A stretch of 64,000 bases of DNA from an uncultured Cytophagia bacterium (GCA_964539665.1 CAZIKB010000003.1:60062-124061), one strand, 5' to 3'. Positions 20,436 through 58,183 are shown, counted from the stretch's first letter. A program made the numbers and translations. The notes: a model not told the origin generated them from the sequence alone.

Positions 20436-21548
20436 TTGAGCGAATCGAAATTGAAAATTGCAATTATGGGTATTCGGGGTATTCCTGCAAATTATGGCGG
20501 CTTTGAAACTTTCGCGGAACAACTTGCTCCCCTATTAGTTCAACGCGGGCATGATGTTACGGTTTATGGGCGCTCCAATTGTATTAAATATGAAAATCAG
20601 TATTATAAGGGAGTGCGATTGGTCATCCTGCCGACTATTTCCCATAAATATCTTGATACGGTTGCTCACACATTATTCTGTGCCATCCATGCCTTAAAAG
20701 AACGATTTGATGTGATTTTAATGTGTAACAGTGCAAATGCCTACTGTGCATTCATACCGCGCCTTGTTGGCACGCCGGTAGCGCTCAATGTCGACGGCCT
20801 GGAATGGAAACGCTCAAAATGGAATAAACTCGGACAATGGTTCTACCTCATTTCTGAAAGGCTGGCCACATTTACAGCGACAGAATTGGTTTCCGACGCC
20901 CGTGAAATCGAAAAATATTATCAGGATAAATTTAACAAATCTTCGACATTTATTCCTTATGGCGCTCCCACAGATAAAGTCGAGTCCCTGGAGGTTTTAA
21001 AGCAATTCGATTTACAGCCTCAACAGTATGTGCTTTATGTCAGCAGATTGGAACCGGAAAATAATGCACACCTGGTCGTAAAAGCTTTTGAAAATGTTAA
21101 AACGGATTTGAAATGTGTGATAGTAGGCGACGCGCCTTATAATGGGGAGTATATTCAAAATTTAAAAAAGACCAAGGATCCGCGGATCATTTTTACAGGC
21201 TATGTGTTTGGTAAAGGTTATCGGGAATTGCAGTCAAATGCCTATTTTTATGTACAGGGAACAGAAGTAGGCGGAACTCATCCGGCTCTGCTCGAGGGTA
21301 TGGGACACGGCAATTGTGTCTTAGCCAATGATGTTCCGGAACATCGGGAGGTTTTAGGAGATTCAGGAGTATATTTCAGCTCCAGGGAAAATGGCGGGCT
21401 TTCTGAAAAAATGCAGTACCTCCTTGATCATCCTGAATTAGTGAATGAATATGGTCAAAAAGCAGTTTCGAGAATTAAGAAATATTATTCATGGGATAAA
21501 GTCACAGAGGAGTATGAGAACTTATTTTATCAATTATCAAAGAAATAA
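20436..21548 (+). CDS. GT4 glycosyltransferase with an N-terminal DUF1972-type domain
   Basis: The N-terminus KIAIMGIRGIPANYGGFETF is characteristic of DUF1972-GT4 proteins. Length is 370 aa with a TTG start. Confidence 0.7.
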   Translation: MSESKLKIAIMGIRGIPANYGGFETFAEQLAPLLVQRGHDVTVYGRSNCIKYENQYYKGVRLVILPTISHKYLDTVAHTLFCAIHALKERFDVILMCNSANAYCAFIPRLVGTPVALNVDGLEWKRSKWNKLGQWFYLISERLATFTATELVSDAREIEKYYQDKFNKSSTFIPYGAPTDKVESLEVLKQFDLQPQQYVLYVSRLEPENNAHLVVKAFENVKTDLKCVIVGDAPYNGEYIQNLKKTKDPRIIFTGYVFGKGYRELQSNAYFYVQGTEVGGTHPALLEGMGHGNCVLANDVPEHREVLGDSGVYFSSRENGGLSEKMQYLLDHPELVNEYGQKAVSRIKKYYSWDKVTEEYENLFYQLSKK

Positions 21549-21551
21549 ATT

Positions 21552-22610
21552 ATGATTTCTAAATTAGTTTTAGAAGATGGTTCGGTATATACTGGTGAGG
21601 CTTTTGGCGATCTCAAATCTGTGGCGGGCGAAGTCGTGTTCAACACTGGAATGGTGGGATACCCTGAGTGCATGACAGATCCTTCCTATGAAGGTCAAAT
21701 TCTTATTTTCACCTATCCGCTTATCGGCAACTATGGTGTTCCATCTGCTCAGGGTGGAAATGGTTTGTTGGAACAAAATTTTGAATCAGATAGAATCCAT
21801 ATTGCCGGTTTGGTTGTGTCTGAACATTCCAGAGATTTTAGCCACTGGAAAGGCCAATCAAATTTAGACACCTGGCTTAAGTCAAATCAAGTCCCGGGGA
21901 TAAGCGGCATAGACAGCCGTTTATTGACTCAAAAGTTGCGAGAAAAAGGCTCAATGCTGGGTAAGTTGGTTACTCACCATCATGATGTTGATTTTAAAGA
22001 TCCAAATCTGGAAAATTTAGTGGCGAGAGTTTCTCCAAATAAACCCATTGAATATGGCAATGGTAGTAAGAGAGTGCTGGTTGTCCATTGTGGATGTAAA
22101 TTAAATATCATCCGCTGCCTTTTAAAAAGAAATGTTTCTGTTTTAGCAGTGCCATGGGATTGGGAAATCGGCAAAGAACAGTTTGATGGAGTGGTAATTT
22201 CTAATGGACCTGGCGATCCAAAGATGTGTGATGTTACCATAAGAAACATCCGGAAATTATTTGATCGAGACCTGCCAGTTTTCGGTATCTGTTTAGGTAA
22301 TCAGATTCTTGCTTTAGCTGCAGGGGCGGATACATATAAGCTAAAATATGGACACAGAAGCCAGAATCAACCCTGTATACTTGTAGGAAGTAAACGTTGT
22401 TATATTACTTCGCAGAATCATGGCTATGCGGTTGATGAAAAGTCTTTGACAGCAGATTGGGAACCCTGGTTTTTTAACGCCAATGATGGCACTAATGAAG
22501 GCATCCGAAATCGCACCAAGCCGTTTTTTGGAGTACAATTTCATCCAGAGGCTTCACCCGGCCCTCTCGATACCAGTTATCTTTTTGATGAATATATAAA
22601 ATTGTTATAA
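21552..22610 (+). CDS. carA: Carbamoyl-phosphate synthase small subunit (glutamine amidotransferase)
   Basis: It has the CarA N-domain and a class-I GATase domain with GICLGNQ and HPE motifs. Length is 352 aa. Confidence 0.85.
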   Translation: MISKLVLEDGSVYTGEAFGDLKSVAGEVVFNTGMVGYPECMTDPSYEGQILIFTYPLIGNYGVPSAQGGNGLLEQNFESDRIHIAGLVVSEHSRDFSHWKGQSNLDTWLKSNQVPGISGIDSRLLTQKLREKGSMLGKLVTHHHDVDFKDPNLENLVARVSPNKPIEYGNGSKRVLVVHCGCKLNIIRCLLKRNVSVLAVPWDWEIGKEQFDGVVISNGPGDPKMCDVTIRNIRKLFDRDLPVFGICLGNQILALAAGADTYKLKYGHRSQNQPCILVGSKRCYITSQNHGYAVDEKSLTADWEPWFFNANDGTNEGIRNRTKPFFGVQFHPEASPGPLDTSYLFDEYIKLL

Positions 22611-22611
22611 T

Positions 22612-25600
22612 ATGGAAAATCTCCCCAAAAAAGTTATCGTATTAGGAAGCTCTGCGCTCAAAATTGGTGAAGCTGGAGAATTCGATTATTCTGGCAGCCA
22701 GGCTATTAAAGCTTTAAAGGAAACCGGAATCCAAACCGTTTTGGTGAATCCAAATATTGCTACAATTCAAACCTCGGAACATTTAGCAGATCAGGTGTAC
22801 TTTTTACCTGTGAATGCATATTTTACTGAGAAGATTATTGAGAAAGAAAAACCAGATGGGATTTTGCTTGCTTTCGGTGGTCAAACAGCGCTCAACTGTG
22901 GGCTTGAATTGTCAAAGAATGGCGTATTTGAAAAGCATAATCTAAGAATATTAGGTAGTCCTCTGAAAGCCATTCAAGAAACAGAAGATCGTGGTCTATT
23001 TGTAAAACGCTTACGGGAAATTGAAGTTGATGTACCTCGAAGCGTGGCGGTTAATTCTACTGAGGAAGCTTTAGCAACGGCTCGAAAAATCGGCTACCCT
23101 GTGATGATTCGAATTGCTTTTGCTTTGGGCGGGCTTGGTTCAGGGATTTGTGTCTCTGAAAACGAGATCAGGGAATTGGCGGATAAGGCTTTTTCATTTA
23201 CCAACCAGATACTTATTGAGGAATACCTGCAGGGCTGGAAAGAAGTCGAATACGAAGTTGTTCGTGATGTTTATAATAATTGCATCACTGTTTGTAATAT
23301 GGAGAATTTTGATCCCTTGGGCATACATACTGGCGAAAGTATTGTAGTTGCACCGAGCCAAACCTTGAATAACCATGAATATCATCGACTCCGTGAAATC
23401 TCTATTCGGGTTGTTCGACACATTGGAATTGTCGGAGAATGTAATGTGCAGTTTGCATTAAATCCTCTGACCGGGGATTACCAGGTCATAGAAGTGAATG
23501 CACGTTTGTCACGAAGCTCTGCCCTGGCCTCAAAAGCAACGGGCTATCCATTGGCATTCATTGCAGCAAAACTGGCCTTAGGATTTGGTTTGACTGATTT
23601 AAAGAATTCGATTACCCAAACAACCATGGCCTGTTTTGAACCAGCTTTAGATTATGTTGTGGTGAAAATTCCTCGCTGGGATTTAAAGAAGTTTCACCGG
23701 GTTTCCACAAGGATTGGCTCTGGCATGAAATCTGTGGGCGAAGTCATGGCCATCGGGCGGTCGTTTGAAGAGGCATTGCAAAAAGCTTTAAGAATGCTGG
23801 ACATTGGGGTTTCAGGTCTGACCGGTAATGACCATCTGGAATTTGAAGATGTGAAAACCGAATTAACTCATCCCACGGACGAGCGCATTTTCGCGATTGT
23901 AAGTGCGTTCAAAGCGGGTATCTCAATTGAAGAAGTCCATAAATTAACCAACATTGACAACTGGTTTCTTTATAAGATCCAACATATACTTCAAGTTGAG
24001 AAGTTGCTTAATGGATATAAAAGTGGTATTTGTCCAAGAGGCACATTATTAGAGGCTAAACGCGCTGGCTTTTCTGATTGTCAGATTGCAAAAAATTTAG
24101 ATTGCCATGATGACGATGTTCGGCGTATGCGCAAGAATTATGGTATCAAGCCTTGCGTGAAACAAATCGACACCCTGGCTGCTGAATATCCGGCACAAAC
24201 AAATTATCTCTACCTAACCTACAATGGCGAGTCTGATGATATCGATTTTCAAATAACAAATTCTGTGATTGTACTGGGTTCCGGAGTGTACCGAATCGGC
24301 AGCTCTGTCGAGTTTGATTGGTGCTGCGTTAACGCAGTTATGACTTTAAGAGAACTGGGCTACAAAACCATTCTTATAAATTATAATCCGGAAACTGTAA
24401 GTACGGACTATGATGAATGTGACCGATTGTATTTTGATGAACTTAGCTTTGAAACCATTTTTGATATTTATGAAAAAGAAAAACCACATGGAGTGATCAT
24501 TTCCATGGGAGGGCAAATTCCAAACAATTTAGCCATGAAATTTCATCAGGCAGGCATGAATGTTTTGGGAACGACCTCTCAAAATATTGATAATGCAGAG
24601 GACCGACACAAATTTTCAACTTTATTAGATACGCTAAAAATTGATCAGCCTGAATGGAACGAACTGGTTTCGACAGAGGAGGCAAAAGCGTTTGCCAAAA
24701 AAGTTAATTACCCGGTATTGGTTCGTCCTTCTTATGTTTTAAGCGGCGCTGCTATGGGAGTGGCCTCGACTGATGTGGAGCTTACCAAGCTGTTAGAAAG
24801 AGCCGCGGAAATTTCCTCTGAATTTCCTGTCGTTATCAGTAAATTTTTGGAGAACGCCAAAGAAATTGAATTTGATGGAGTGGCTCAAAAAGGTGAGTTA
24901 ATTGTTTATGCAATTTCAGAACATGTGGAGAACGCCGGGGTGCATTCCGGCGATGCTACATTGGTTTTACCGCCTCAAAGAACTTACATCGAAACCATTC
25001 GACAGGTGCGCAGCATTTCCAGAAAAATAGCCCAGGCTCTGCAAATAACCGGCCCGTTTAATATGCAATTCATCGCTAAAAATAACGATGTGAAAGTAAT
25101 AGAATGCAATTTAAGAGCTTCACGAAGTTTTCCTTTCGTTTCAAAGGTTGTTAAGGTTAATTTTATTGATATCGCCACTCGTGTTCTTTTAGGTGAAATC
25201 GTGCCTAAAAGTGATAAATCATTTATGGAGCTCGAATATGTTGGAGTTAAAGCTCCGCATTTTTCCTTTACCCGTCTACAGGGTGCGGATCCTACCCTGG
25301 GCGTTGAAATGGCCTCAACAGGCGAAGTAGGCTGCCTGGGAGATGACTTTGAAGAAGCGTTTCTTAAAGCGTTAATTTCAGTTGGATTTAAATTACCTGT
25401 CCGTTCAATTTTAATTTCGACTGGTCCCCTTGAAAACAAAGCCGAATTTATTTCCAGCGCAAAAATACTCATGGATTTAGGTGTAAGAATATATTCCACT
25501 AAAGGAACTTCAGAATTTATGAAGCAATACGGAATAGACACCGATATTCTATATTGGCCTCTGGAGAAAAAGAGCCCGAATGTTTTAGAATATTTAAGTA

Positions 25601-25806
25601 ATAATAAAATTGATTTGGTAATTAATATTCCAAAAAATTATCAGGAAGAAGAACTGACTAACGATTATATCATTCGTCGCCATGCAGTAGATTATGGCAT
25701 TCCATTGATTACTAATTTGCAGCTTGCCAGACGATTCGTTGAGGCTATGTCAAGAAAAGCGCCATCTGAATTACAAATCAAAAGTTGGGGGGATTACGAG
25801 TTATGA
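22612..25806 (+). CDS. carB: Carbamoyl-phosphate synthase large subunit
   Basis: The 1064 aa protein has duplicated ATP-grasp halves, an oligomerisation domain and an MGS-like domain. It begins 1 nt after the carA stop. Confidence 0.9.
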   Translation: MENLPKKVIVLGSSALKIGEAGEFDYSGSQAIKALKETGIQTVLVNPNIATIQTSEHLADQVYFLPVNAYFTEKIIEKEKPDGILLAFGGQTALNCGLELSKNGVFEKHNLRILGSPLKAIQETEDRGLFVKRLREIEVDVPRSVAVNSTEEALATARKIGYPVMIRIAFALGGLGSGICVSENEIRELADKAFSFTNQILIEEYLQGWKEVEYEVVRDVYNNCITVCNMENFDPLGIHTGESIVVAPSQTLNNHEYHRLREISIRVVRHIGIVGECNVQFALNPLTGDYQVIEVNARLSRSSALASKATGYPLAFIAAKLALGFGLTDLKNSITQTTMACFEPALDYVVVKIPRWDLKKFHRVSTRIGSGMKSVGEVMAIGRSFEEALQKALRMLDIGVSGLTGNDHLEFEDVKTELTHPTDERIFAIVSAFKAGISIEEVHKLTNIDNWFLYKIQHILQVEKLLNGYKSGICPRGTLLEAKRAGFSDCQIAKNLDCHDDDVRRMRKNYGIKPCVKQIDTLAAEYPAQTNYLYLTYNGESDDIDFQITNSVIVLGSGVYRIGSSVEFDWCCVNAVMTLRELGYKTILINYNPETVSTDYDECDRLYFDELSFETIFDIYEKEKPHGVIISMGGQIPNNLAMKFHQAGMNVLGTTSQNIDNAEDRHKFSTLLDTLKIDQPEWNELVSTEEAKAFAKKVNYPVLVRPSYVLSGAAMGVASTDVELTKLLERAAEISSEFPVVISKFLENAKEIEFDGVAQKGELIVYAISEHVENAGVHSGDATLVLPPQRTYIETIRQVRSISRKIAQALQITGPFNMQFIAKNNDVKVIECNLRASRSFPFVSKVVKVNFIDIATRVLLGEIVPKSDKSFMELEYVGVKAPHFSFTRLQGADPTLGVEMASTGEVGCLGDDFEEAFLKALISVGFKLPVRSILISTGPLENKAEFISSAKILMDLGVRIYSTKGTSEFMKQYGIDTDILYWPLEKKSPNVLEYLSNNKIDLVINIPKNYQEEELTNDYIIRRHAVDYGIPLITNLQLARRFVEAMSRKAPSELQIKSWGDYEL

Positions 25807-27620
25807 ACATATTAGGTATATCTTGTTTTTATCATGACAGCGCCGCCTGTTTAGTGCAGGATGGTGAAATTGTTGCCGCAGCACAGGAAGAAAGGTTTAC
25901 CCGTAAAAAGCATGATCAGGAGTTTCCCCAAAATGCCATTAATTTTTGTCTGGATTATGCAAAAATCGATGTCAAGGATTTAGATTTTGTAGCTTTCTAT
26001 GATAAACCTTTCTTGAAATTCGAGCGAATATTAGAGACCTATCTTGCCTTTACTCCAAAAGGAATTACGTCATTTTTAATGGCCATCCAATTATGGATTA
26101 AGCGAAAGCTCTGGATCCCTGACTTAATTCGCAAAGAACTTGGGTATGATGGGAAAATAATTTATCCGGAACATCATGAATCACATGCTGCGTCGGCATT
26201 TTTCCCCTCTCCATATCAAGAGGCTGCGTTTATAACCATGGACGGCGTCGGCGAATGGACCACCACATCTTACGGTGTTGGCAAAGACAATAAAGTAAGT
26301 ATTCTTGCTGATTTACAATTCCCGCATTCATTAGGATTGTTGTATTCGGCATTCACATACTTTACTGGATTTAGGGTCAATTCAGGGGAATATAAAGTAA
26401 TGGGTTTGGCTCCCTATGGAGAACCAAAGTATGTCCAGGCTATTCGGGACAATTTAATCGATATTAAAGAAGACGGTTCCTATAAAATGAACATGGAATA
26501 TTTCGATTACTGTTCCGGATTAAAGATGACAAATGGCAAGTTTGATAAAATATTTGGCGGACCGCCAAGAAAGCGAGAGTCGAAACTGGCGCAGCGAGAG
26601 ATGGACCTGGCGCGTTCGGTGCAGGAAATTACTGAAGAAATTATGCTTAAAACTGCGCGTCATGTTCATGACGAAACCGGGCAGAAGTATTTGTGCCTGG
26701 CTGGCGGGGTGGCCCTCAATTGTGTTGGCAACGGAAGAATTCTACGAGAAGGTCCATTTGAGGATATCTGGATTCAGCCCGCCGCTGGAGACGCCGGGGG
26801 GGCTCTGGGAGCTGCACTGTTTACCTGGCACCAATATTTAGACAATAATCGACAAAGCAATGGCAGAGATGAGTTACAAAAAGGATCGTATTTAGGCCCT
26901 GAATATAGCGATAATGACATCCAAAGCTTTTTAGACGAACATAAAATACCCTATCAAAAAATAAACTCTGAAGAGTTACCCACAATAATCGCTGATGTAA
27001 TTATTAATGAAAAAGTTGTCGGCTGGTTTCAAGGCAGGATGGAGTTTGGTCCGAGAGCGCTCGGCAGCCGTTCAATTATTGGCGATGCACGTTCGTCTGA
27101 GATGCAAAAAGTTATGAATCTTAAAATCAAATTCAGAGAAAGTTTCAGGCCATTTGCTCCATCGGTTTTAGAAGAGCGGGTGTCCGATTATTTTGAGATT
27201 GACAGAGCAAGCCCATATATGCTTTTGGTTGCGCCTGTAAATAAAAATATACGGCGCAACATGACCGAAGAAGAACAAAATTTATTTGGCATTGATAAAC
27301 TTAATATAGCCCGTTCAGAAATACCGGCCATTACGCACGTTGATTATTCGGCGCGAATTCAGACTGTTGATTGTCGTACCAATCCACTTTATCATAAACT
27401 GATTTCAGCAGTGGAGTCTAAAACTGGATGTCCTGTTATCATCAATACCTCTTTTAATGTGCGTGGCGAACCCATCGTGTGTACACCTTTAGACGCCTAT
27501 AAATGTTTTATGCGCACAGAAATGGATTATCTTTGTATGGGTAATTTTCTTTTGGATAAAAAACAACAGCCAGAGTTTCATGATGATATTAACTGGCAAG
27601 AAAAATATGAGTTAGATTAA
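25785..27620 (+). CDS. NodU/CmcH-family carbamoyltransferase
   Basis: The probable true start is the ATG at 25803, which overlaps the carB stop as ATGA. The protein begins MNILGISCFYHDSAA, has a Kae1/HypF-like N-domain and a carbamoyltransferase C-domain, and is 611 aa long. Confidence 0.85.
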   Translation: MGGLRVMNILGISCFYHDSAACLVQDGEIVAAAQEERFTRKKHDQEFPQNAINFCLDYAKIDVKDLDFVAFYDKPFLKFERILETYLAFTPKGITSFLMAIQLWIKRKLWIPDLIRKELGYDGKIIYPEHHESHAASAFFPSPYQEAAFITMDGVGEWTTTSYGVGKDNKVSILADLQFPHSLGLLYSAFTYFTGFRVNSGEYKVMGLAPYGEPKYVQAIRDNLIDIKEDGSYKMNMEYFDYCSGLKMTNGKFDKIFGGPPRKRESKLAQREMDLARSVQEITEEIMLKTARHVHDETGQKYLCLAGGVALNCVGNGRILREGPFEDIWIQPAAGDAGGALGAALFTWHQYLDNNRQSNGRDELQKGSYLGPEYSDNDIQSFLDEHKIPYQKINSEELPTIIADVIINEKVVGWFQGRMEFGPRALGSRSIIGDARSSEMQKVMNLKIKFRESFRPFAPSVLEERVSDYFEIDRASPYMLLVAPVNKNIRRNMTEEEQNLFGIDKLNIARSEIPAITHVDYSARIQTVDCRTNPLYHKLISAVESKTGCPVIINTSFNVRGEPIVCTPLDAYKCFMRTEMDYLCMGNFLLDKKQQPEFHDDINWQEKYELD

Positions 27621-27621
27621 T

Positions 27622-28059
27622 ATGAATTTAATCGATGACATAAAGTTTGAAATAACAAAGTTAAAAGAAGATAAGAGCACCTTAAGAAAATTTGCAATTA
27701 CCATAGCATCCGCACTTTGCATTATAGGTGCTTTAGTATTCTTTCTTGGAAGCAGGGCAGAGACCGCATTCTGGTTATGGGGATTTGGATCATCCATTTT
27801 AATATTAGGTATCACGGTTCCCAATGTCTTAAAGCCATTTCACCTATTGTGGATGACATTGGCCTTTGTTTTAGGTTGGTTTGTATCACGCTTAATTCTA
27901 AGCATAGTTTTTTATTTAGTGATGACACCCATCGGATTAGTAATGAAAATCATCGGAAAAGATCTGATAAATCAAAAGCTTGAAAAGAATAATTTATCTT
28001 ACTGGATAAAACGTGACCCGGTAAATAGGAATCCTGAAAGTTATGAAAAATTATTCTAA
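27622..28059 (+). CDS. SxtJ-like small membrane protein
   Basis: The 145 aa protein has 3-4 TM segments and lies immediately downstream of the carbamoyltransferase. Confidence 0.45.
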   Translation: MNLIDDIKFEITKLKEDKSTLRKFAITIASALCIIGALVFFLGSRAETAFWLWGFGSSILILGITVPNVLKPFHLLWMTLAFVLGWFVSRLILSIVFYLVMTPIGLVMKIIGKDLINQKLEKNNLSYWIKRDPVNRNPESYEKLF

Positions 28060-28068
28060 GAGGTTGAC

Positions 28069-28227
28069 ATGAGCAAAATCTCAATAATAAAAGAATTTAG
28101 TCAATTTCTTATTTATAGAAAAAAATGGTGGTTAACTCCAATTGTAATTGTATTATTGCTGCTTGGTGCTTTAATCATTTTGACTGAAGGCAGTGCATTG
28201 GCACCGTTCATTTACACCTTATTTTAG
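28069..28227 (+). CDS. DUF5989/SxtK-like small membrane protein (52 aa); absent from the ORF track because it is under 60 aa
   Basis: Translation is MSKISIIKEFSQFLIYRKKWWLTPIVIVLLLLGALIILTEGSALAPFIYTLF, which matches the RKKWW...APFIYTLF family signature. Confidence 0.55.
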   Translation: MSKISIIKEFSQFLIYRKKWWLTPIVIVLLLLGALIILTEGSALAPFIYTLF

Positions 28228-28380: not shown

Positions 28381-29628
28381 ATGAAAGTTCTCATGATAGA
28401 TAAGTATTTTTTTATTAAAGGTGGCGCAGAACGTTATTTCTTTGAATTGAAGGATATATTAGAGGATAAAGGACATAAAGTGATCCCGTTTTCCATGAAG
28501 CATCCCGACAACTTTGAAACTCCTTATGAAAAATATTTTGTGAATAACATAGACTATGAATTCACTTCAGTCTTTAAAAAAGCGCTCGCTTTTCCACAGA
28601 TTACTGCGCGCATGCTTTATTCATTCCATGCGAAAAATCGACTAGAGAAATTGTTGTCAGACGAAAGGCCAGATATTGCCCACCTTCATATGATTGATCA
28701 TCAGTTGTCTCCATCGATATTACATACGCTTAAAAAGCATAAAATCCCTGTAATACAGACTATTCATCAGTATAAACTTGTATGTCCAAACTATCGTCTG
28801 TATAACCCCACGACAAATAAAATTTGTGAAAAATGCCTGGATGGAAATCTGTTTCATCCAATTATTGAAAAATGTCATAAGAATTCGCAATTGGCCAGCG
28901 CTTTAATTGCGATAGAAAGTTATTTTCATCGATTTATCCGTATTTATGAAAAGAACATTGACATATTTCATACGCCAAGTCGATTCATGGGGGATAAACT
29001 TAAATGCGCCAATATTGGCAATGGAAAAATTCGACATCTTTTTTATTCTTTGAATTTAGATAATTATCAACCCCATATCGAGTTCGATGATTATATCGTC
29101 TATTTTGGGAGATTAGCAATTGAAAAAGGTGTCCTGACGCTTCTCAAAGCTATGCAAAAGCTCAGTCATGTAAAATTGCGGGTTGTTGGTGACGGCCCGG
29201 AACGTAAAACATTGGAAGAGTATGCAAATCTTAATAATTTATCTAATGTTGTTTTTGTTGGTAATAAAGACGGTGACGAATTAAAGTCGATAATTCAAAA
29301 TAGTAAGTTCGTGATTATACCATCAGAATGGTATGATAACTCGCCTCTGGTCATTTATGAAGCATTTGCTTACGGTAAACCTGTTATTGGGGCCCGGATG
29401 GGTGGAATTCCAGAGTTAATTGATCATAAAATAAACGGATTCCATTATGAAGCTGGAAATGATGAAGAATTAGCTGAACACATCAAATATCTCTCTAGCC
29501 AACCATATCTTATTGCTGAATTTGGTAATCAAGCTCGAGCAAAAGCGGAAAGAGAATTTGAACCGGAACATCATTACAAGCAAATGTATGCCTGGTATGA
29601 AGAATTACTTGTTGGTAATGAAAAATAA
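28381..29628 (+). CDS. GT4 glycosyltransferase
   Basis: It is 415 aa with a GT-B fold and the C-domain sequence EWYDNSPLVIYEAFAYGKPVIG. Confidence 0.7.
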   Translation: MKVLMIDKYFFIKGGAERYFFELKDILEDKGHKVIPFSMKHPDNFETPYEKYFVNNIDYEFTSVFKKALAFPQITARMLYSFHAKNRLEKLLSDERPDIAHLHMIDHQLSPSILHTLKKHKIPVIQTIHQYKLVCPNYRLYNPTTNKICEKCLDGNLFHPIIEKCHKNSQLASALIAIESYFHRFIRIYEKNIDIFHTPSRFMGDKLKCANIGNGKIRHLFYSLNLDNYQPHIEFDDYIVYFGRLAIEKGVLTLLKAMQKLSHVKLRVVGDGPERKTLEEYANLNNLSNVVFVGNKDGDELKSIIQNSKFVIIPSEWYDNSPLVIYEAFAYGKPVIGARMGGIPELIDHKINGFHYEAGNDEELAEHIKYLSSQPYLIAEFGNQARAKAEREFEPEHHYKQMYAWYEELLVGNEK

Positions 29629-30785: not shown

Positions 30786-32477
30786 ATGCTTCAATTAAAT
30801 AAATATCTAAATTTGAAAAAAAATAATAAAAATAAATCAGTGCAATTAGTGCTTTTTATTACAGTCGTGGGTATAATCTTTCGATTATTTCTAATGCGCT
30901 ATAGATTTGCTGTTGGATTTGATGAAGTTAATTATTTAAAACTTGGAGTGAGCGGTCACTTGAACGGATTATCCGATATTCTACATACTTACTGGTCACC
31001 GCTTCTACCGATGCTAATTTCATTCTCGAGTGGAATTTTTGATAATTATGAATTTGCTGGTCGTATTATATCAATTTTAGCCGGAACATTATTAGTAATT
31101 CCGGTTTATAGCCTGGGCAAATATGTTTATGATGAGAAAATCGGACTGATTGCGGCTGGATTTGTTGCTATTTATCCACCATTGGCTTTTCAAGCAACGA
31201 ATGTCAAGACAGAACCTGTTTATATGCTTTTCGCAATCATTGCAATTATTTTTGGCCTGCGAATGTTAAATCGAGAATCAAAGGGATTTGCCTTTCTTGC
31301 CGGATTATTTTCAGGTTTAGCTTATCTTACCCATCCCCAGGGTATGGGCTTTTGTATTGTGATTGCGTTTTGGATTTTATTTAGTACCTTGTTCAGGCTC
31401 TATGCATTTCGATTTCGACGAATGATTGTGCTGTTCGCTATTTTGAGTTTTGGTTTTATCATTATTGCTGCTCCTTATTTAATTTATTTGAAAAAGGCAA
31501 CCGGAGGCTGGACTTTAAGCGCCAAAGGCGCTGCAAATCAGCAAATGGAGGCTCACGTGAGTGAAGAAGGGCAAGATGCGTTTCGAGCGCTGGATGCAAG
31601 TAACAAAAACGTGCTCTTCGATCAAATTTTTCATAAAGGTGATTTCTTGGATGCAACCAATGATGGAACGGATCCTGTGACAGTAGTCAGGCTCGGCCCG
31701 CTCTTTTTCAAGTATATTGAGAACCTGGCAAACATGTTAAAAGGTACAATTCCGGAATTTTTTACTACCCTGCCGATGATTCTTTTGGGAATCGGTTTGT
31801 TTGGAGAAAGATGGCAATCCCAACAAGGCAAAATCATCCTGTATCTTGTAAGCTTCATTGTGTTTTTTTGGTTAATATTAATTCCATTGTTTCATCTCAA
31901 TTTAAGGTACCTTTCACCACTCTGGCCGCTCTGTGCAATATGGATTGCAAAAGGCGCCAGCCACATATATGGTTGGTTAGCATCTTATATGCCGTTGGTA
32001 AACTTTTCGAAGAGATTTGATAACAAATTAAATTCTAATACTGTTGCAGTGGTTATTATTCTTGCAGTTTTTTTTAGTTTGACTTTTCTGCCGGAATTGG
32101 GACGTGTTATATCAAGACGTTCAGATACGAGAGAATACTGGGGTGATGCTGTAGATCAAAAAAAAGCAGGCCTTTGGATAAAAGAAAAAATGCCTGGAGA
32201 TAAGTCAATTATGAGTTATAATCATGCGGTAAGTTTTTATGCCGGCAGCTATGATATTAGCCAATCTATTGAAATTCCTGATAATGGGATAGAACGCATT
32301 TTGAAATACGCAAAGTATAGAAAAGTAAATTTACTTGTTCTAAATGAAAGATATAAAATAGTTTTTCCCAGAATCAATTATTTATTAAGTTCTGAAAATG
32401 TCCCGGATGGACTTGAATTAGTTTATCAGGATATGGATCGTTCAGGACTAAAAACCGTGATATATAAAATATTGTAA
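30786..32477 (+). CDS. GT-C membrane glycosyltransferase (PMT/ArnT-like, second copy)
   Basis: The 563 aa protein has a DE motif in its first loop (GFDEVNYL), more than 10 TM helices and a C-terminal soluble domain. Confidence 0.5.
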   Translation: MLQLNKYLNLKKNNKNKSVQLVLFITVVGIIFRLFLMRYRFAVGFDEVNYLKLGVSGHLNGLSDILHTYWSPLLPMLISFSSGIFDNYEFAGRIISILAGTLLVIPVYSLGKYVYDEKIGLIAAGFVAIYPPLAFQATNVKTEPVYMLFAIIAIIFGLRMLNRESKGFAFLAGLFSGLAYLTHPQGMGFCIVIAFWILFSTLFRLYAFRFRRMIVLFAILSFGFIIIAAPYLIYLKKATGGWTLSAKGAANQQMEAHVSEEGQDAFRALDASNKNVLFDQIFHKGDFLDATNDGTDPVTVVRLGPLFFKYIENLANMLKGTIPEFFTTLPMILLGIGLFGERWQSQQGKIILYLVSFIVFFWLILIPLFHLNLRYLSPLWPLCAIWIAKGASHIYGWLASYMPLVNFSKRFDNKLNSNTVAVVIILAVFFSLTFLPELGRVISRRSDTREYWGDAVDQKKAGLWIKEKMPGDKSIMSYNHAVSFYAGSYDISQSIEIPDNGIERILKYAKYRKVNLLVLNERYKIVFPRINYLLSSENVPDGLELVYQDMDRSGLKTVIYKIL

Positions 32478-32484
32478 ATTAAAA

Positions 32485-33882
32485 ATGACAGGTTTAATAT
32501 TTAATTCAGAAATTGTTTATTTTGGGCTCGTAGTGGTCATTTTTACCCTGGGATTTATAATGTTCTCTAATCACGCTTATTTTCTTTTGGCGGCAGGCAC
32601 AATATCAGCGGCCTTTCAGGGTGGTCTGTGGATTCCGTCATTCAATACAGATTTCTATTTGAGCTTTATTATCTTCAGCATTCTTTTAGTCTATTCCTAT
32701 GTAAATCCTAAAAGCAATAATGGAATACGGTATAATAACAAAGTTATGATCTTTGCCTGGCTTGGTGTATTTCTTTTTTCGATATTTGCCATCACAAAGG
32801 CACTGGATGTAAGCAAGGCACGCCAGGCAATTATCTTGTTTTCTATCGATTTAGTGATATTTTTTGCAATATGGCGAACTGTTCGAACTCCCAAGGATGT
32901 TCAATTTTTTATTGCCTGCCTAATAGCAGCTTTAATTGTTCAGAGTATGATTGGTATGCTGCAATACAAAATCCCACTTTTTAAAATTGGCATTATTGAT
33001 CAGGTTCTGGCAGAGGGTAAAACAAAATGGTACCGCGCTAAAGGTACGTTTTATCATCCCAATGGATTTGGAATGTATATAATGATTATGCTGCCCATTG
33101 CGTACCGTGGCTTAATTAACGCATACATGCAAAAAAATATAAAGTGGCGTTTTTATTGTATCGTGGGATTGACATTTGGAATTGTTGCGCTGCTGGCCTC
33201 ATTTAATCGTGGTTCCTGGGCGGGTTTATTTGTTGGATTCTTTATAATGTGTATGGTAGATTTTTTTCGTCGAAAGAAAAAAATTACCAAAGTACTTTCA
33301 AATTTAATTGTTGCTGCCTTTATCTTTGGTACCATAATTTCGATTAAATTTGCCCCGGTTGTGTTAGAACGAATATATGGGGCCGATGCTGATGAACAAG
33401 TTGAAAACAGATCTTCTCAGATGGTTGAGGCAACTGAATTGATTAAGCAAAATCCATTTATAGGAGTAGGGTATGGCAATGATCTATTTTATGCCGCACA
33501 GATATTTGTGCATAACCTTTATTTATTGATCGCTGCTGAAGCTGGCATTCCTGGATTGATCTTTTTCTTATGGTTTTTGATTGAATTATTTAGGGAAACC
33601 TGGAGGACAAGCGGATCGCAAATTATCTATTGTGCTAATTACTCTCGTGGTTTTATCGCATCACTAATAGGTTTTTGTATTTCTTCCTGGGTAGGTCCCG
33701 ATTTTTGGATACATTATGGAGTTCAATCATATTTCTGGCTTTTAGTTAGTCTTGTGTTTGTTGTAGGGCGGTTAGATCGAAATTTAATATATAAACAAAA
33801 AATGATGCAAAAGCGACAAAGAGAGACGGTTGCACACAATAACATACCAGTTTTGATGAGTACAAGCGGATATCCTAAATAA
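32485..33882 (+). CDS. O-antigen ligase/polymerase-like membrane protein (Wzy_C domain)
   Basis: The 465 aa protein has 10-12 TM helices and a large periplasmic loop with SFNRGSWAG and H...R motifs typical of WaaL/Wzy. Confidence 0.55.
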   Translation: MTGLIFNSEIVYFGLVVVIFTLGFIMFSNHAYFLLAAGTISAAFQGGLWIPSFNTDFYLSFIIFSILLVYSYVNPKSNNGIRYNNKVMIFAWLGVFLFSIFAITKALDVSKARQAIILFSIDLVIFFAIWRTVRTPKDVQFFIACLIAALIVQSMIGMLQYKIPLFKIGIIDQVLAEGKTKWYRAKGTFYHPNGFGMYIMIMLPIAYRGLINAYMQKNIKWRFYCIVGLTFGIVALLASFNRGSWAGLFVGFFIMCMVDFFRRKKKITKVLSNLIVAAFIFGTIISIKFAPVVLERIYGADADEQVENRSSQMVEATELIKQNPFIGVGYGNDLFYAAQIFVHNLYLLIAAEAGIPGLIFFLWFLIELFRETWRTSGSQIIYCANYSRGFIASLIGFCISSWVGPDFWIHYGVQSYFWLLVSLVFVVGRLDRNLIYKQKMMQKRQRETVAHNNIPVLMSTSGYPK

Positions 33883-33946: not shown

Positions 33947-35746
33947 ATGAAGGAGTACAGTATGGCAATTCTCTCTTTTAGTAATGAGCATGAAGCTGGT
34001 GCGGCAATTATCAGGCATGGTAAAATTGTTGCCGCGATTAATGAGGAACGACTTACCCGGGTAAAAAATCAAGATGGATTCCCAAATCTATCAATTGCTT
34101 ACGTACTTCAGAAATCTAACTTGCGACCAAATGATATTAATCATGTTATTATACCTGAAATTAGTAAAATACGCGATATTTTTACGAATGTTCTTGTGCA
34201 ATATCCACTAAATGTATTCTATAAATCACCTGGAATGCAGTGCAGTTTTACAGATTATCTACGTCAATTACTATTATCAGGTTATATTTTAGTTAGAACC
34301 TATGCGCGAGTTCTACTTGACCATCGAAGAGATGAAAAACTGCTGCGAAAGATGTTCCCGAGGGCTGAATTTCACCGATTGAACCATCATCTATCTCATG
34401 CCGCTTCAACTTTTTTCACCAGTGGTTTTGAAAAAGCAATGATTATTACAGCCGATTATTGGGGAGACTTTACAACAACTATGGTTTCAATTGGCGAAGG
34501 TAAGAAAATTCGTCCTGTGGAACAAAGCTATTATCCGCATTCGTTAGGACATTACTACGCCAGTTTAACTAATTGGCTTGGCTTTCGTCCGAACCGGCAT
34601 GAAGGTAAAATCCTTGGTCTGGCAGCAATGGGCGATCCTGAATCTCCGGTTTATGATATGATCAAGGATTTATTGATTTGTGATGGACTTAAAATAAAAG
34701 CGCCCTTCATGATTGGTAAAATGTGGCATAAAAATGTTCGATGGTTCAAGAACTGTTTAATGCGCCAAATGGTTGATAATTATTCACGTGAAGATATATC
34801 TGCTGCATTCCAGCGCAGGTTTGAGGAAGTATTTGTTGAATTGGTTAAAAATGCGGTGAAGCAGTTTGGTCTGAAAAATATAGCATTAGCTGGTGGTGCG
34901 TTTGCAAATGTTAAGCTTAACCAAAATATTTTAGAAGTTGACGGAATAGAAAATATTTATATTTATCCGAACATGAGCGATGGCGGTATTTCTCAAGGCG
35001 CAGCATTATACTATGATATTCAATCAAATGGCAGTATGCCGTCGTTACTGACTAATGTTTATTTCGGTCCAAGTTATACCGACGATCAAATCGAGGCGGA
35101 GCTCAAGGAAAGGAATATAAAATATCACAGACATGAAAACATCGAAAAAGAAATAGCTAAATTAATTGCTGAAAGCAATGTGGTGGCACGATTCGCCGGG
35201 GCTATGGAACTCGGTCCACGAGCATTAGGCAATCGTTCCATTCTATACTCCGCGACGGATCCGAAAGTTAATAAATGGCTCAATGCCCGATTGAAGCGAA
35301 CTGAATTTATGCCATTTGCACCCGTGACCCTCGAAGAATATGCTGATAAATGCTACAAAAATTTCAATGGCGCTAAAATAGCATCCAAGTTTATGGTGAT
35401 TACCTTTGACTGCACCGATTTTATGAAAGAAAAATCTCCGGCAACAGTTCATGTGGATGGCACAGCAAGACCGCAAGTTATAAATGAAAAAGACAATCCT
35501 AGCTATTATAATATTCTAAAAGAGTATCATAAACTTACCGGCATTCCAACCCTGGTGAATACCAGTTTTAATATGCACGAAGAACCGATAGTATGTACTC
35601 CTCAGGATGCAATTCGCTCATTTTTACAGGGTACTCTGGATTACCTGGCAATTGGAAATTTCTTAGTGAAAAATAAGGATAAGGAATCACCTGAGAAAGG
35701 ACATGTTGATGAATTAAAGGAAGTCCCTTTCAAAGAATTAGTCTGA
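33947..35746 (+). CDS. NodU/CmcH-family carbamoyltransferase (second copy)
   Basis: It begins MAILSFSNEHEAGAAIIRHGKIV, has the same two-domain architecture as the ORF at 25803, and is 599 aa long. Confidence 0.85.
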   Translation: MKEYSMAILSFSNEHEAGAAIIRHGKIVAAINEERLTRVKNQDGFPNLSIAYVLQKSNLRPNDINHVIIPEISKIRDIFTNVLVQYPLNVFYKSPGMQCSFTDYLRQLLLSGYILVRTYARVLLDHRRDEKLLRKMFPRAEFHRLNHHLSHAASTFFTSGFEKAMIITADYWGDFTTTMVSIGEGKKIRPVEQSYYPHSLGHYYASLTNWLGFRPNRHEGKILGLAAMGDPESPVYDMIKDLLICDGLKIKAPFMIGKMWHKNVRWFKNCLMRQMVDNYSREDISAAFQRRFEEVFVELVKNAVKQFGLKNIALAGGAFANVKLNQNILEVDGIENIYIYPNMSDGGISQGAALYYDIQSNGSMPSLLTNVYFGPSYTDDQIEAELKERNIKYHRHENIEKEIAKLIAESNVVARFAGAMELGPRALGNRSILYSATDPKVNKWLNARLKRTEFMPFAPVTLEEYADKCYKNFNGAKIASKFMVITFDCTDFMKEKSPATVHVDGTARPQVINEKDNPSYYNILKEYHKLTGIPTLVNTSFNMHEEPIVCTPQDAIRSFLQGTLDYLAIGNFLVKNKDKESPEKGHVDELKEVPFKELV

Positions 35747-35761
35747 GAGATTTCGATTCGA

Positions 35762-37219
35762 TTGTGTGACTTTATTATGAGCCGAGAGAACAAGTTTTTT
35801 AAAAATACACTCGCAATTTCGTTAGCACATGGACTGCAACCTTTTCTTTCTTTAGTATTATCGCTGGCAATAGCTCGACTGCTGGGCAAGGAAAGTTTTG
35901 GAGTCTATGCAACTATATTTTATTTGATTGCGATTTTCGAGATGATAAGTTCTTTAGGGGTGAAAACGGTTTTAACTCGCGAAGTAGCAAAAGATAAATC
36001 ATCTGCTTCAAATTACATCACAAGCAGTGTCATAGTTACGTTCGCGTTATCCATACTGGCCATTATTTTACTACATATTACTGTTCGGTCTATCAAGTAT
36101 GATGATATAATTTTGCAACCAGTTTACATCCTGGCCTGGTCTCTGATTGCTTCTGGAATTGCAGATTCTTTAGAAGGAATACTGCAAGGTTTGGAGAAAA
36201 TTCAAGCCATCGCGAGCGCCTGGATGATTGAGCAGATACTACGTGTGGCCGTAAGTCTCTTTATTATCTACAATGGATATGGCATAATTGAATTGGCGCT
36301 GGTTTATGCTGTGATACGCTATGTTTACCCTGTGCTTCTTTATTGGATGTTAATGAGGACGACAAAAAAAATAAGGTGGCAGCCGGACTTAAATTTAGTA
36401 AAAAAATTATTTTCAGCAACAAGAGTTTTTGGCCCAATAATGATTTTTGTTTCTGTATACTGGCGAATAGATTCTATTATATTAGCTAAGGTTTTAGATC
36501 TTAAGGATGTAGGCATTTATAATGCCGGCAATAAACTTTTTTGGTTTTTTATTATTCTGGTACGAAGTTTCTTTGCATCTTTTTATCCACTTGTTTCTGA
36601 TATATTTGCTAATCGAGCTTCACGGTTTGAAATTGTATGCAAGAAATCTATATTCTATTTATTGGCCTTACTGGTACCGATTGCTGTATCTATTACACTG
36701 TTTTCCGAACAAATTATAACAACATTGTGGGGCCAACAATACATTGGAGCGGGCACTGTTTTACAAATATTAATTTGGTGTACATTGCCATACGCTGTGT
36801 CCAAAGTGTTCGCGTATGCCTTTATCTCGAGCAATTTGCAGCGTTTTGATCTTTGGGTAAACATTATAGGGGTGGCTTTTAAAGTTACAATATTTACAAT
36901 AATGATAAATTTATATGGAGTTGTAGGTGGAGCCTGGGCAAATTTGATTGGCATGTTTTTTGTAGTGGTGATACAGTTGCCATTTGTTATGAATTATTTA
37001 TTTAAGTTTGAACTCAGTTCTATGTTAATGCCTTGTGTAAAACTTTTAATTGCTGTTTTTTCGATGTTTGTAATAGGAAAATTGTTCCCACATGTTAATT
37101 TCATTTTGATGGGAGTCGTAATAAATGTTATTTATTTTGCAACTTTATTTCTAATAAAAGTATTCAATGATGAAGATAAGTTACTTTTTCGTAAGTTATT
37201 ACATCTTAGCAGGACATAG
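35762..37219 (+). CDS. MOP/Wzx-family polysaccharide flippase (second copy)
   Basis: The 485 aa protein has about 14 TM helices. Confidence 0.6.
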   Translation: MCDFIMSRENKFFKNTLAISLAHGLQPFLSLVLSLAIARLLGKESFGVYATIFYLIAIFEMISSLGVKTVLTREVAKDKSSASNYITSSVIVTFALSILAIILLHITVRSIKYDDIILQPVYILAWSLIASGIADSLEGILQGLEKIQAIASAWMIEQILRVAVSLFIIYNGYGIIELALVYAVIRYVYPVLLYWMLMRTTKKIRWQPDLNLVKKLFSATRVFGPIMIFVSVYWRIDSIILAKVLDLKDVGIYNAGNKLFWFFIILVRSFFASFYPLVSDIFANRASRFEIVCKKSIFYLLALLVPIAVSITLFSEQIITTLWGQQYIGAGTVLQILIWCTLPYAVSKVFAYAFISSNLQRFDLWVNIIGVAFKVTIFTIMINLYGVVGGAWANLIGMFFVVVIQLPFVMNYLFKFELSSMLMPCVKLLIAVFSMFVIGKLFPHVNFILMGVVINVIYFATLFLIKVFNDEDKLLFRKLLHLSRT

Positions 37220-57559: not shown

Positions 57560-58183
57560 ATGAAGACATCTAAAAAAGCATGTACAATTTGGTTCACGGG
57601 TTTACCTTCCTCTGGAAAATCTACTTTGGCGGAGATGCTGGAAAAGGAGTTAAAAAACCGCGGAGAAAGGGTCGAAATTTTAGATGGCGATGTAGTCCGT
57701 ACGAATTTAAGCAAAGGCTTGACCTTTAGTAAGGAAGATCGGGACATCAATATCCGGAGAATAGGATTTGTTTGTCATTTGTTGACAAGAAATGGTGTGT
57801 TCGCAATTTCTGCAGCAATATCTCCTTATAGAAATATACGAGATGAAAACCGTGCACTCATAGGCAACTTTGTCGAGGTTTTTGTTGATTGTCCACTGGA
57901 TGAATGTATTAAAAGAGATGTAAAAGGTCTTTATAAAAAAGCATTGGCCGGCGAAATAAAGGAATTTACCGGCGTTTCTGATCCTTATGAAGAACCTCTC
58001 AAACCTGAAATTGTGATTGACGCCCACGGAGAAGAACCCAAAGATAGCCTTCAAAAAATACTGGCGAGATTAGTAGAATTAGGTTACTTATCCAATAACG
58101 GTCTTGATACATCTGACAAAGCATATTCTGATGAAGAAGAAGAGGTAGTGAGAAAGCGGCTGAGTGATCTGGGCTATATTTAA
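57560..58183 (+). CDS. cysC: Adenylylsulfate (APS) kinase with a roughly 50-aa C-terminal extension carrying two LGY[IL] tail motifs
   Basis: It has the P-loop [14 protein letters not shown] and the APS-kinase core. The extension reads ...[40 protein letters not shown]. Confidence 0.85.

Follow-up and report, generated by a model that had tools for sequence, protein, structure and literature searches.

Results

Gene content of the locus

The window, the whole 64 kb stretch of DNA that was analysed, is a one-strand glycan locus. It contains GT2 and GT4 glycosyltransferases, two Wzx proteins (Polysacc_synt), Wzy_C, two PMT_2 proteins, epimerases, AsnB-like genes and PAPS synthesis genes. Pfam scans were carried out on 48 ORFs, nearly every non-overlapping ORF of at least 100 aa in the window, and only glycan, sulfation and phosphotransfer families were found. 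With flippases, Wzy_C and several glycosyltransferases predicted on one strand, the locus is of the Wzx/Wzy type; an initiating phosphoglycosyl transferase was not identified in the window. A promoter and terminator consensus scan gave matches no better than those in shuffled sequence. All the genes named in the initial annotation are present at the coordinates given there, on the + strand. The features considered here are the following.

20436..21548, + strand: GT4 glycosyltransferase with DUF1972 N-domain, Cps2T-like (Pfam)
21552..22610, + strand: carA, glutamine-hydrolysing carbamoyl-phosphate synthase small subunit, 352 aa (PF00988 and PF00117)
22612..25806, + strand: carB, carbamoyl-phosphate synthase large subunit, 1064 aa (Pfam)
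25803..27620, + strand: CT1, predicted O-carbamoyltransferase of the TobZ/NovN/GdmN/NodU superfamily, 605 aa (Pfam)
27622..28059, + strand: SxtJ-family small membrane protein, 145 aa (PF19588, 1.3e-12)
28069..28227, + strand: DUF5989 peptide, 52 aa, one TM helix by hydropathy (PF19451, 2.7e-24)
28381..29628, + strand: GT4 glycosyltransferase of the conserved core block (Pfam)
30786..32477, + strand: PMT_2 (GT-C type) membrane glycosyltransferase (Pfam)
32485..33882, + strand: Wzy_C polymerase/ligase-type membrane protein (Pfam)
33947..35746, + strand: CT2, second predicted carbamoyltransferase, 599 aa (Pfam)
35762..37219, + strand: Wzx-type flippase, closing the conserved core block (Pfam)

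The genes from the upstream GT4 to DUF5989 are separated, in order, by 3, 1, -4, 1 and 9 nt. The GT4 stop and the carA start are thus 3 nt apart, and 1 nt separates CT1 from the SxtJ-family gene. The negative value corresponds to the ATGA overlap described initially, in which the carB stop TGA (25804-25806) overlaps the CT1 ATG (25803). The mechanical ORF of CT1 starts at TTG 25785; the ATG at 25803 gives a product of 605 aa, the length of most CT1 homologues among the 120 listed. The upstream GT4 scores below equivalog level (193 bits with NCBIfam NF046071, whose cut-off is 500). A non-coding gap of 1157 nt directly follows the second GT4 (28381..29628).

CarA and CarB are a canonical carbamoyl-phosphate synthase by sequence

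CarA has the CPSase_sm_chain and GATase domains (Pfam), scores above equivalog level with TIGR01368 (447 bits, cut-off 307) and carries the Cys-His-Glu triad of a class-I amidotransferase, in the catalytic Cys motif GICLGNQ and in HPE. The domain set of CarB is full, with both ATP-grasp halves, the oligomerisation domain and the MGS-like allosteric domain. Its scores are 1522 bits with TIGR01369 (cut-off 1027) and 1301 bits with NF003671 (cut-off 599), and residues 6-1049 align end to end with the CPS1 and E. coli CarB structures. A database protein, P0001, is 100% identical to it. By these scores and motifs, the predicted products are a canonical glutamine-hydrolysing carbamoyl-phosphate synthase (CPSase).

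The two carbamoyltransferases

CT1 contains Carbam_trans_N (7e-101) and Carbam_trans_C (2.5e-73) domains (Pfam), and no TM segment was predicted in it. It matches 7xb6, NovN, GdmN and TobZ over the full length (E 7e-93 to 1e-73). The alignment spans the two domains of the solved members, Kae1-like at the N-terminus and YrdC-like at the C-terminus, an architecture that CT1 shares. TobZ acts in two steps through carbamoyl-AMP; from the full-length alignment, the same mechanism is the expected chemistry of CT1. TobZ, NovN, GdmN and 7xb6 are soluble, stand-alone enzymes of antibiotic tailoring, and we know of no small membrane partner or linked CPSase described for them. Among the 120 homologues listed, identities to CT1 are 72-82% and many phyla are represented; the relatives at 72-74% come from Brocadia, Nitrospirota, Nitrospinota, KSB1, Omnitrophota and CPR.

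The second carbamoyltransferase reported at 33947 was found to extend to 35746. CT2 is 30% identical to CT1, has Carbam_trans_N (3.5e-53) and Carbam_trans_C (7.9e-60) domains (Pfam), and is not accompanied by SxtJ or DUF5989 in the adjoining genes. The related locus L172 carries a 73% identical orthologue in the same PMT_2-Wzy-CT2 position. The initial description of these enzymes as NodU-type holds only at the level of the superfamily. Neither reaches the equivalog level of NodU proper (NF041651, NCBIfam, cut-off 1000), CT1 scoring 141 bits and CT2 154 bits.

SxtJ-like and DUF5989 partners of CT1

The SxtJ-family protein has three long hydrophobic helices by hydropathy, a SYWIKR motif conserved at the C-terminus in the alignment, and an AlphaFold model with a pLDDT of 81. 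At CT1-relative metagenomic loci with room downstream, SxtJ was found in 59 of 63 and DUF5989 in 50 of 63. The CT-SxtJ-DUF5989 triad is thus, by predicted gene content, a widespread module. No mention of DUF5989 was found in the literature searched.

The parallel drawn earlier with sxtI-sxtJ-sxtK of saxitoxin clusters is real in gene order, in sizes (612, 134 and 54 aa as given for sxt; 605, 145 and 52 aa here) and in the Pfam SxtJ match. It reflects the widespread module, which sxt clusters share, rather than a relation to saxitoxin. The published sxtK is 165 bp (PMC2679770), and the likeness of the DUF5989 peptide to SxtK is one of size (52 versus 54 aa) and position only. Carbamoyl phosphate was proposed as the donor from which SxtI, with SxtJ and SxtK, transfers the carbamoyl group (PMC2679770). 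At two related loci (L092, L170), a GDSL lipase, like SxtL of the sxt block, adjoins the triad. The sxt gene tables consulted do not include carAB, whereas the window does, and the likely acceptor in the window is a glycan, in contrast to the non-glycan acceptor reported for saxitoxin clusters (PMC2679770). Saxitoxin core genes (such as the polyketide-synthase-like SxtA and the amidinotransferase SxtG) did not appear in the Pfam scans of the 48 window ORFs, and the window was rejected as a saxitoxin cluster.

Conservation of carAB in the glycan locus of relatives

All CarB matches of 76-85% identity come from uncultured bacteria and form a clade that is monophyletic in 100/100 NJ bootstraps, with KSB1 CarBs as the sister group. 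The identities within it are star-like and there is no long branch. Of the 11 clade contexts that were read, 10 have carAB among glycan genes, and 7 have a carbamoyltransferase within 7 kb of it. The exception to the glycan setting is P0004, whose CarB is 85% identical and whose carAB lies away from glycan genes.

The commonest order is GT4(DUF1972)-carA-carB-PMT_2-Wzy-GT4-...-Wzx. Orthologues of the first GT4, 72-84% identical, lie immediately 5′ of carA in L001, L165, L167-L170 and L172. PMT_2 orthologues (47-57% identical) are the first gene after carB in most relatives, the position of Wzy_C is kept, and orthologues of the second GT4 (57-72% identical) usually follow Wzy. Wzx follows the carbamoyltransferase module also in L001 and L167-L170. 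The stretches read of L165, L166 and L171 show no carbamoyltransferase. The glycan locus nevertheless retains carAB in L165 and carB in L166, where carA is absent from the 8 kb read upstream.

The triad lies directly after carB in the subclade of the window and L001; in four relatives it lies 4-5 kb downstream. In L001, carB and CT1 are 490 bp apart, and the gap contains a hairpin. Among the clade contexts compared, the ATGA overlap is confined to the window; relatives do not share it.

Outside the clade the linkage of carAB to a carbamoyltransferase is rare. A carbamoyltransferase within 10 kb was found at 0 of 80 GTDB CarB loci among the matches listed, a set that does not include the window's clade, and carAB was found at 1 of 80 CT1-relative loci. 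On the contig L106 (59% GC) the same genes are arranged differently, as PGT-like-CT-SxtJ-DUF5989-carA-carB. Its CarB fragment falls outside the window's CarB clade, and by this placement L106 is an independent recurrence of the linkage in an unrelated lineage.

Discussion

Origin and role of carAB

The initial annotation had proposed that carAB supplies carbamoyl phosphate for glycan carbamoylation within the locus, as a dedicated enzyme rather than the housekeeping one. Clade synteny and L106 lend comparative support to the supply, and carAB is physically linked to genes of the pathway that would consume its product. The claim of a dedicated enzyme finds no support in the equivalog scores, in the lack of a long branch or in the allosteric domain, which is 82% identical to that of P0004 (non-glycan) and 76% to that of P0003 (glycan) and shows no relaxation. 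The CarB phylogeny that had been called for gave no divergent branch, and the clade it recovered includes P0004. Divergence of CarB from the housekeeping enzyme of the lineage is not seen in the sequences compared, and CarAB is apparently the vertically inherited, canonical enzyme of the clade.

The reading we favour, in which our confidence is about even, is that carAB, very probably the normal enzyme of the lineage, is in this clade a fixed resident of a large envelope-glycan operon of the Wzx/Wzy type and would feed glycan carbamoylation. It starts from what is directly observed: the gene identities, the tight packing, the ATGA overlap, the clade synteny and the canonical CarAB sequence. 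carAB would be single-copy in the genome, would very probably also feed arginine and pyrimidine synthesis, and is probably co-transcribed with the glycosyltransferases. CarAB would convert glutamine, bicarbonate and 2 ATP into carbamoyl phosphate, which would flow to the carbamoyltransferases. By analogy with TobZ, CT1 and CT2, as predicted soluble two-domain enzymes, would react carbamoyl phosphate with ATP to give carbamoyl-AMP. The carbamoyl group may then pass to a hydroxyl on a sugar of the repeat unit as it grows, probably on a lipid carrier. The SxtJ-like and DUF5989/SxtK-like proteins probably anchor CT1 at the cytoplasmic membrane face. Against this reading, a glycan operon is an unusual place for a lone housekeeping carAB, here 3 nt behind a glycosyltransferase, and relatives do not share the ATGA coupling. 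The acceptor of CT1 may also be something other than the glycan of the window, and the genome may contain a divergent second CPSase of less than 70% identity.

A comparable supply has been described in P. aeruginosa, where the ordinary CarB (PA4756) is thought to serve WapO (PA5005) in carbamoylation of LPS core heptose, and where deletion of carB gives the same phenotype as deletion of wapO (PMC13552734). There too an ordinary CPSase would serve a NodU/CmcH-superfamily carbamoyltransferase decorating an envelope glycan. The P. aeruginosa genes are, as reported there, about 250 gene numbers apart and in different operons, whereas carAB of the window lies inside the glycan operon and overlaps the carbamoyltransferase gene; SxtJ or DUF5989 partners of WapO, unlike those of CT1, are not mentioned in that account (PMC13552734).

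Alternative explanations

An extra CPSase serving glycan carbamoylation only, with another CPSase or a carbamate kinase serving arginine and pyrimidine synthesis, appears unlikely. It would fit the operon-tight embedding with the ATGA overlap, the retention of carAB inside the glycan locus clade-wide and the independent triad-carAB linkage in L106. The PAPS synthesis genes of the window also favour it, as they provide a parallel for locus-encoded donor supply. Pathway-specific duplicates are known: Bacillus subtilis and Lactobacillus plantarum have arginine-specific CarAB and pyrimidine-specific PyrAA/AB, two copies under different regulation, each located in and co-regulated with the operon consuming its product. 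The window resembles them in having CPSase genes inside the operon of the consuming pathway. Two copies are demonstrated in those species, whereas CarAB of the window bears no sign of specialisation in its sequence. CarB occupies the expected organismal neighbourhood (sister KSB1) with neither a long branch nor a relaxed allosteric domain, P0004 of the same clade has a non-glycan context at 85% identity, and carAB (L165) or carB (L166) persists with no carbamoyltransferase in view. Further, of the checked named matches of at least 70% identity, none was a second CarB of the annotated relative GCA_046757025.1.

It seems equally improbable that position was simply inherited and has no functional meaning, a glycan locus having expanded next to a housekeeping carAB, or around it, in an ancestor of the clade while the carbamoyltransferases draw on the general carbamoyl-phosphate pool. 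The rarity of the linkage (79 of 80 CT1-relative loci without linked carAB, 0 of 80 listed CarB loci with a carbamoyltransferase) and the unlinked WapO and CarB of P. aeruginosa (PMC13552734) would agree with this. So would the varying position of the carbamoyltransferase, its absence from view in L165, L166 and L171, and the restriction of the ATGA overlap to the window. Against it, the triad has moved to directly after carB in the subclade of the window and L001, and L106 shows the linkage independently. The GT4-carA-carB-PMT_2 order, moreover, is kept down to 76% CarB identity despite changed neighbours (L171, L172), longer than unselected synteny usually lasts. The acceptor itself may be questioned. 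The CT1-SxtJ-DUF5989 triad could be self-contained and horizontally mobile, with a conserved acceptor of its own, for instance a common envelope lipid or a small molecule, so that only CT2 or neither enzyme decorates the glycan and the carAB link concerns that other product. CT1 relatives 72-74% identical, almost all of 605 aa, range from Brocadia to CPR, and SxtJ and DUF5989 are present at most of the 63 CT1-relative loci with room downstream. Moreover, 13 of 33 long loci show no detected similarity to the glycan genes of the window; in five of them the neighbouring genes were read and proved unrelated, among them HisRS, ThiD, BshC, adenine deaminase and a transposase. With relatives this similar across phyla and 13 such loci, the acceptor of CT1 may not be the glycan of the window. 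In saxitoxin clusters, the same module has been recruited to serve an acceptor that is not a glycan (PMC2679770). We nevertheless regard this explanation as the least probable, and quite remote, as the triad in this clade always lies between glycosyltransferase and flippase genes, 20 of the 33 long loci elsewhere have glycan genes, and in L106 a phosphoglycosyl-transferase-like gene is immediately 5′ of the triad.

In the favoured reading, the carAB of the glycan locus is the normal enzyme of the lineage. If it is the sole carAB, nucleotide and arginine supply would be tied to transcription of the glycan operon.

Gene content of the carAB region

Gene calls were made from an ORF listing with Pfam and NCBIfam searches. 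They confirmed the genes named in the initial annotation, including the ATGA by which the carB stop overlaps the start of the first carbamoyltransferase (CT1), and a second carbamoyltransferase (CT2) at 33947.

Features of the carAB region (window coordinates, strand)
21552-22610, +, carA: 352 aa; TIGR01368 447 bits (cut-off 307); GICLGNQ Cys motif and HPE
22612-25806, +, carB: 1064 aa; TIGR01369 1522 bits (cut-off 1027)
25803-27620, +, CT1: 605 aa; Carbam_trans_N and Carbam_trans_C
27622-28059, +, SxtJ-like: 145 aa; PF19588, 1.3e-12
28069-28227, +, DUF5989: 52 aa; PF19451, 2.7e-24
33947-35746, +, CT2: 599 aa; 30% identity to CT1

CarB has two ATP-grasp halves, an oligomerisation domain and an MGS-like allosteric domain (Pfam). 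The intergenic distances from the upstream GT4 gene to DUF5989 are 3, 1, -4, 1 and 9 nt. The ATG start of CT1 is considered correct because most of the homologues listed (120) share a length of 605 aa. CT1 could be aligned over its full length to the solved O-carbamoyltransferases 7xb6, NovN, GdmN and TobZ. The earlier label 'NodU-type' holds for the superfamily and fails for the NodU equivalog, where CT1 and CT2 score 141 and 154 bits against a cut-off of 1000. No TM segment was predicted in CT1 or CT2; three long hydrophobic helices are present in the SxtJ-like protein and one in DUF5989.

The remainder of the window is a glycan locus on one strand, as seen from the same searches. It encodes GT2 and GT4 glycosyltransferases, two Wzx, Wzy_C, two PMT_2, epimerases/dehydratases, AsnB-like amidotransferases, methyltransferases, ATP sulfurylase and APS kinase, and several alkaline-phosphatase-superfamily proteins. 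The locus is otherwise tightly packed around a 1157-nt non-coding AT-rich gap (29629-30785, 33% GC) between GT4 and PMT_2, which may be a boundary separating transcription units. An Rfam search of the entire window gave no match, and a scan for consensus promoters and terminators performed no better on the real sequence than on shuffles.

Several other features of the locus were recorded. The ATP sulfurylase (54799-57435; PUA_2 and ATP-sulfurylase, NF003166 584 bits) carries a C-terminal fusion to a 'Phosphodiest' domain of the alkaline-phosphatase superfamily and is followed by APS kinase (57560-58183), so that the locus has its own genes for PAPS synthesis. This unusual fusion points to a sulfated glycan. 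Six alkaline-phosphatase-superfamily proteins (Sulfatase or Phosphodiest in Pfam) are encoded at 37249-38628, 43768-45645, 45855-47513, 48612-50795, 50788-52782 and 58183-59529. Those at 43768 and 45855 have 4-5 N-terminal TM helices ahead of the catalytic domain, a layout which we take to be closer to LtaS/EptA-type transferases than to soluble sulfatases. After the Phosphodiest genes and before a methyltransferase lies a 276-aa ORF (53039-53869) that matched no Pfam family and is predicted to span the membrane three times. A GHL15 and Golvesin_C protein recurs in glycan loci of the clade (window 38685-40538; L171 6193-7917; L172 18860-20716, where it adjoins CT2), and a GH39 protein is encoded at 41923-43731. 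Glycoside hydrolases encoded alongside biosynthetic genes in this way may serve in trimming or remodelling of the polymer.

Contexts of carAB in the clade

The carAB contexts of the window and ten relatives were compared, and gene content was checked by tblastn.

Contexts of carAB (n=11; CarB identity to the window)
Window, 100%: GT4(DUF1972)-carA-carB-CT1-SxtJ-DUF5989-GT4-//-PMT_2-Wzy-CT2-Wzx
L001, 85%: GT4-carA-carB-(490 bp with hairpin)-CT1-SxtJ-DUF5989-PMT_2-Wzy-GT4-Wzx
L167, 83%: GT4-carA-carB-PMT_2-Wzy-GT4-CT1-SxtJ-DUF5989-Wzx
L168, L169, L170, 78%, 76%, 77%: gene order as L167
L172, 78%: GT4-GDSL-carA-carB-PMT_2-Wzy-CT2 (73% to window CT2)-GHL15/Golvesin-GT4
L165, 82%: core order as L167; no carbamoyltransferase from GT4 to Wzx
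L166, 81%: carB (no carA upstream)-DUF559-PMT_2-Wzy-GT4-Wzx; no carbamoyltransferase
L171, 78%: GT2-Wzx-3xGT4-Golvesin_C-two hypotheticals-carA-carB-SLBB
L004, 85%: giant adhesin-carA-carB-Usp-CitMHS-nuoJKLMN; non-glycan

carAB has glycan genes as neighbours in 10 contexts out of 11, with a carbamoyltransferase within 7 kb in seven; the ATGA overlap of carB and CT1 was found in the window only. L001, the closest relative with the gene order of the window, has between carB and CT1 a non-coding spacer of 490 nt (13199-13688, 34% GC) with a near-perfect hairpin, AAACCTTCCAGGTTTTTAAAACCTGGAAGGTTT; it may represent the insertion of a small element, or else a terminator. No coding remnants were detected by tblastx against related loci in this spacer or in the 1157-nt gap of the window. 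At L166 (1-11640, GCA_037446635.1) carA was absent from the 8 kb read upstream of carB. The genes preceding carB there (HerA_C/DUF87 ATPase, NTP_transf_2 and Unstab_antitox in Pfam) suggest defence or toxin-antitoxin functions, and DUF559 follows. Replacement of the glycan locus over its upstream half seems to have occurred there.

The linkage was then sought outside the clade. None of 80 GTDB CarB loci had a gene resembling CT1 or CT2 within 10 kb; these loci, drawn from the matches listed at 60-75% identity, served as a background set and do not include the CarB clade of the window. Conversely, carAB was present in one of 80 metagenomic loci with CT1 relatives (58-73% identity). This locus, L106, belongs to a 59%-GC organism, its CarB fragment falls outside the clade, and its order is CoA_binding_3 (phosphoglycosyl-transferase-like)-CT-SxtJ-DUF5989-carA-carB. 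By these comparisons the linkage of carAB with a carbamoyltransferase is rare, with at least two origins in differing gene orders, which argues for a functional reason behind it. In the literature searched, no direct precedent was found for glycan or natural-product clusters in which a carbamoyl-phosphate synthase (CPSase) gene accompanies a carbamoyltransferase.

The CT1-SxtJ-DUF5989 module

SxtJ accompanies CT1 relatives in 59 of 63 loci with room downstream, and DUF5989 in 50. CT1 relatives of 72-74% identity, nearly all 605 aa, occur in Brocadia, Nitrospirota, Nitrospinota, KSB1, Omnitrophota and CPR. Such striking conservation and the near-constant partners imply that the triad is a strongly constrained module, and one that has probably spread horizontally. 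The likeness to sxtI-sxtJ-sxtK noted in the initial annotation is real (PMC2679770, PMC2885083) and reflects this widespread module. A saxitoxin-like cluster was rejected, as no core sxt genes are present in the window. For the SxtJ-like protein, a Foldseek search of the PDB with an AlphaFold model (pLDDT 81) gave nothing below E = 1, and no direct precedent for DUF5989 was found in the literature. To our knowledge, SxtJ and SxtK/DUF5989 have been uncharacterised ever since the saxitoxin cluster was described.

A GDSL/SGNH lipase-family gene lies inside the triad of L170 (19570-20688) and adjoins that of the metagenomic locus L092 (5508-6695), like sxtL beside sxtI-J-K in sxt clusters; in L172 (7751-8932) such a gene is directly upstream of carA. 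By analogy, the pairing of lipase and carbamoyltransferase hints at carbamoylation and decarbamoylation.

Dedicated or housekeeping carAB

The window CarB has a 100% identical match in a protein of an unannotated NCBI assembly. Its closest further relatives (76-85%) are from unclassified and 'Caldithrix sp.' MAGs, and the next tier among the matches listed (70-75%) is from KSB1 and Calditrichota. It scores higher with human mitochondrial CPS1 (1245 bits) than with E. coli CarB (857 bits), a likeness that may be general among related CarBs. Two 'Caldithrix sp.' CarBs (P0030, TDI92973.1; P0034, TDI92391.1) show 2 differences over 1064 residues, and their accessions are separated by 582; neighbouring MAG submissions, redundant strains within a single bin and a genuine recent duplication are all possible readings.

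The initial annotation had read carAB as locus-intrinsic rather than housekeeping and had proposed a CarB phylogeny as a check. The outcome spoke against a dedicated second copy, which is now considered unlikely. In neighbour-joining trees the 44 closest CarBs were monophyletic in 100/100 bootstraps and sister to KSB1 CarBs, with star-like identities and no long branch. The group of P0004, a CarB from a non-glycan context, was nested in this clade (100/100), beside the window and P0003, a CarB from a glycan locus, in 56/100; the P0004 context (Usp, CitMHS, nuoJ-N) is not common to outgroups. The allosteric domain of the window CarB is nearer to P0004 (82%) than to P0003 (76%), and both CarA and CarB reach equivalog-level scores. 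Further, carAB in L165 and carB in L166 stay in the locus where no carbamoyltransferase was seen in the region read. In GCA_046757025.1, a PGAP-annotated relative, the accessions of CarB and the carbamoyltransferase are consecutive (MFQ5601692 and MFQ5601693, at L001), and no further CarB fell in its accession range among the checked named matches of at least 70% identity. Accession proximity serves here as a proxy for a shared genome and covers annotated assemblies.

The proposed tie of carAB to glycan carbamoylation thus stands in part: gene packing, synteny and L106 favour it, and there is no sign of a specialised extra copy. That carAB merely inherited its position, without function, is also improbable. 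In favour of a genuine link, the packing is operon-tight, synteny holds down to 76% CarB identity, the triad has moved to a position directly after carB in the subclade of the window and L001, and L106 is an independent case. Gene order free of selection would normally be expected to break up sooner. An acceptor for CT1 other than the glycan of the window is less probable still. Genes similar to the glycan genes of the window were found in 20 of 33 long CT1-relative loci; for the remaining 13, neighbours were read at five loci and include HisRS, ThiD, BshC, adenine deaminase and a transposase.

There is about an even chance that carAB encodes the canonical CPSase of the clade, probably the sole one, which resides within the glycan operon, is expressed together with it and feeds CT1, CT2 and general metabolism. 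Here the acceptor, co-transcription and what SxtJ and DUF5989 do are inferences. A precedent comes from P. aeruginosa, in which an ordinary CarB is reported to supply the glycan carbamoyltransferase WapO from an unlinked gene (PMC13552734).

Implications

A stronger and rather doubtful proposal is that a CPSase has been recruited as a true part of an envelope-glycan pathway, either as a dedicated enzyme or as the only CPSase of the cell under glycan-operon control. A dedicated enzyme would hand carbamoyl phosphate directly to a membrane-tethered CT1-SxtJ-DUF5989 complex, and the carB/CT1 overlap would keep the amounts matched. With an only CPSase, glycan carbamoylation would consume a large share of the carbamoyl phosphate. 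Either variant, if true, would be the first example of a polysaccharide locus with a CPSase gene as an integral part and would give a route to the function of SxtJ and SxtK proteins. Loci in which the triad adjoins carB, lies 4-5 kb off or is absent, and loci with CT2 alone, are natural comparison sets for the function of SxtJ and SxtK/DUF5989.

If carAB is the housekeeping copy, the lesson is one of annotation: for any primary-metabolism gene within a glycan cluster, the label 'dedicated' needs a copy-number check first. The carbamoyl donor for glycans is usually assumed to come from the general pool. Carbamoylation of envelope glycans affects charge, antimicrobial-peptide resistance and recognition, as in P. 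aeruginosa colistin resistance (PMC13552734). That a clade retains carAB in such an operon suggests that the availability of carbamoyl phosphate can limit glycan decoration and be regulated together with it.
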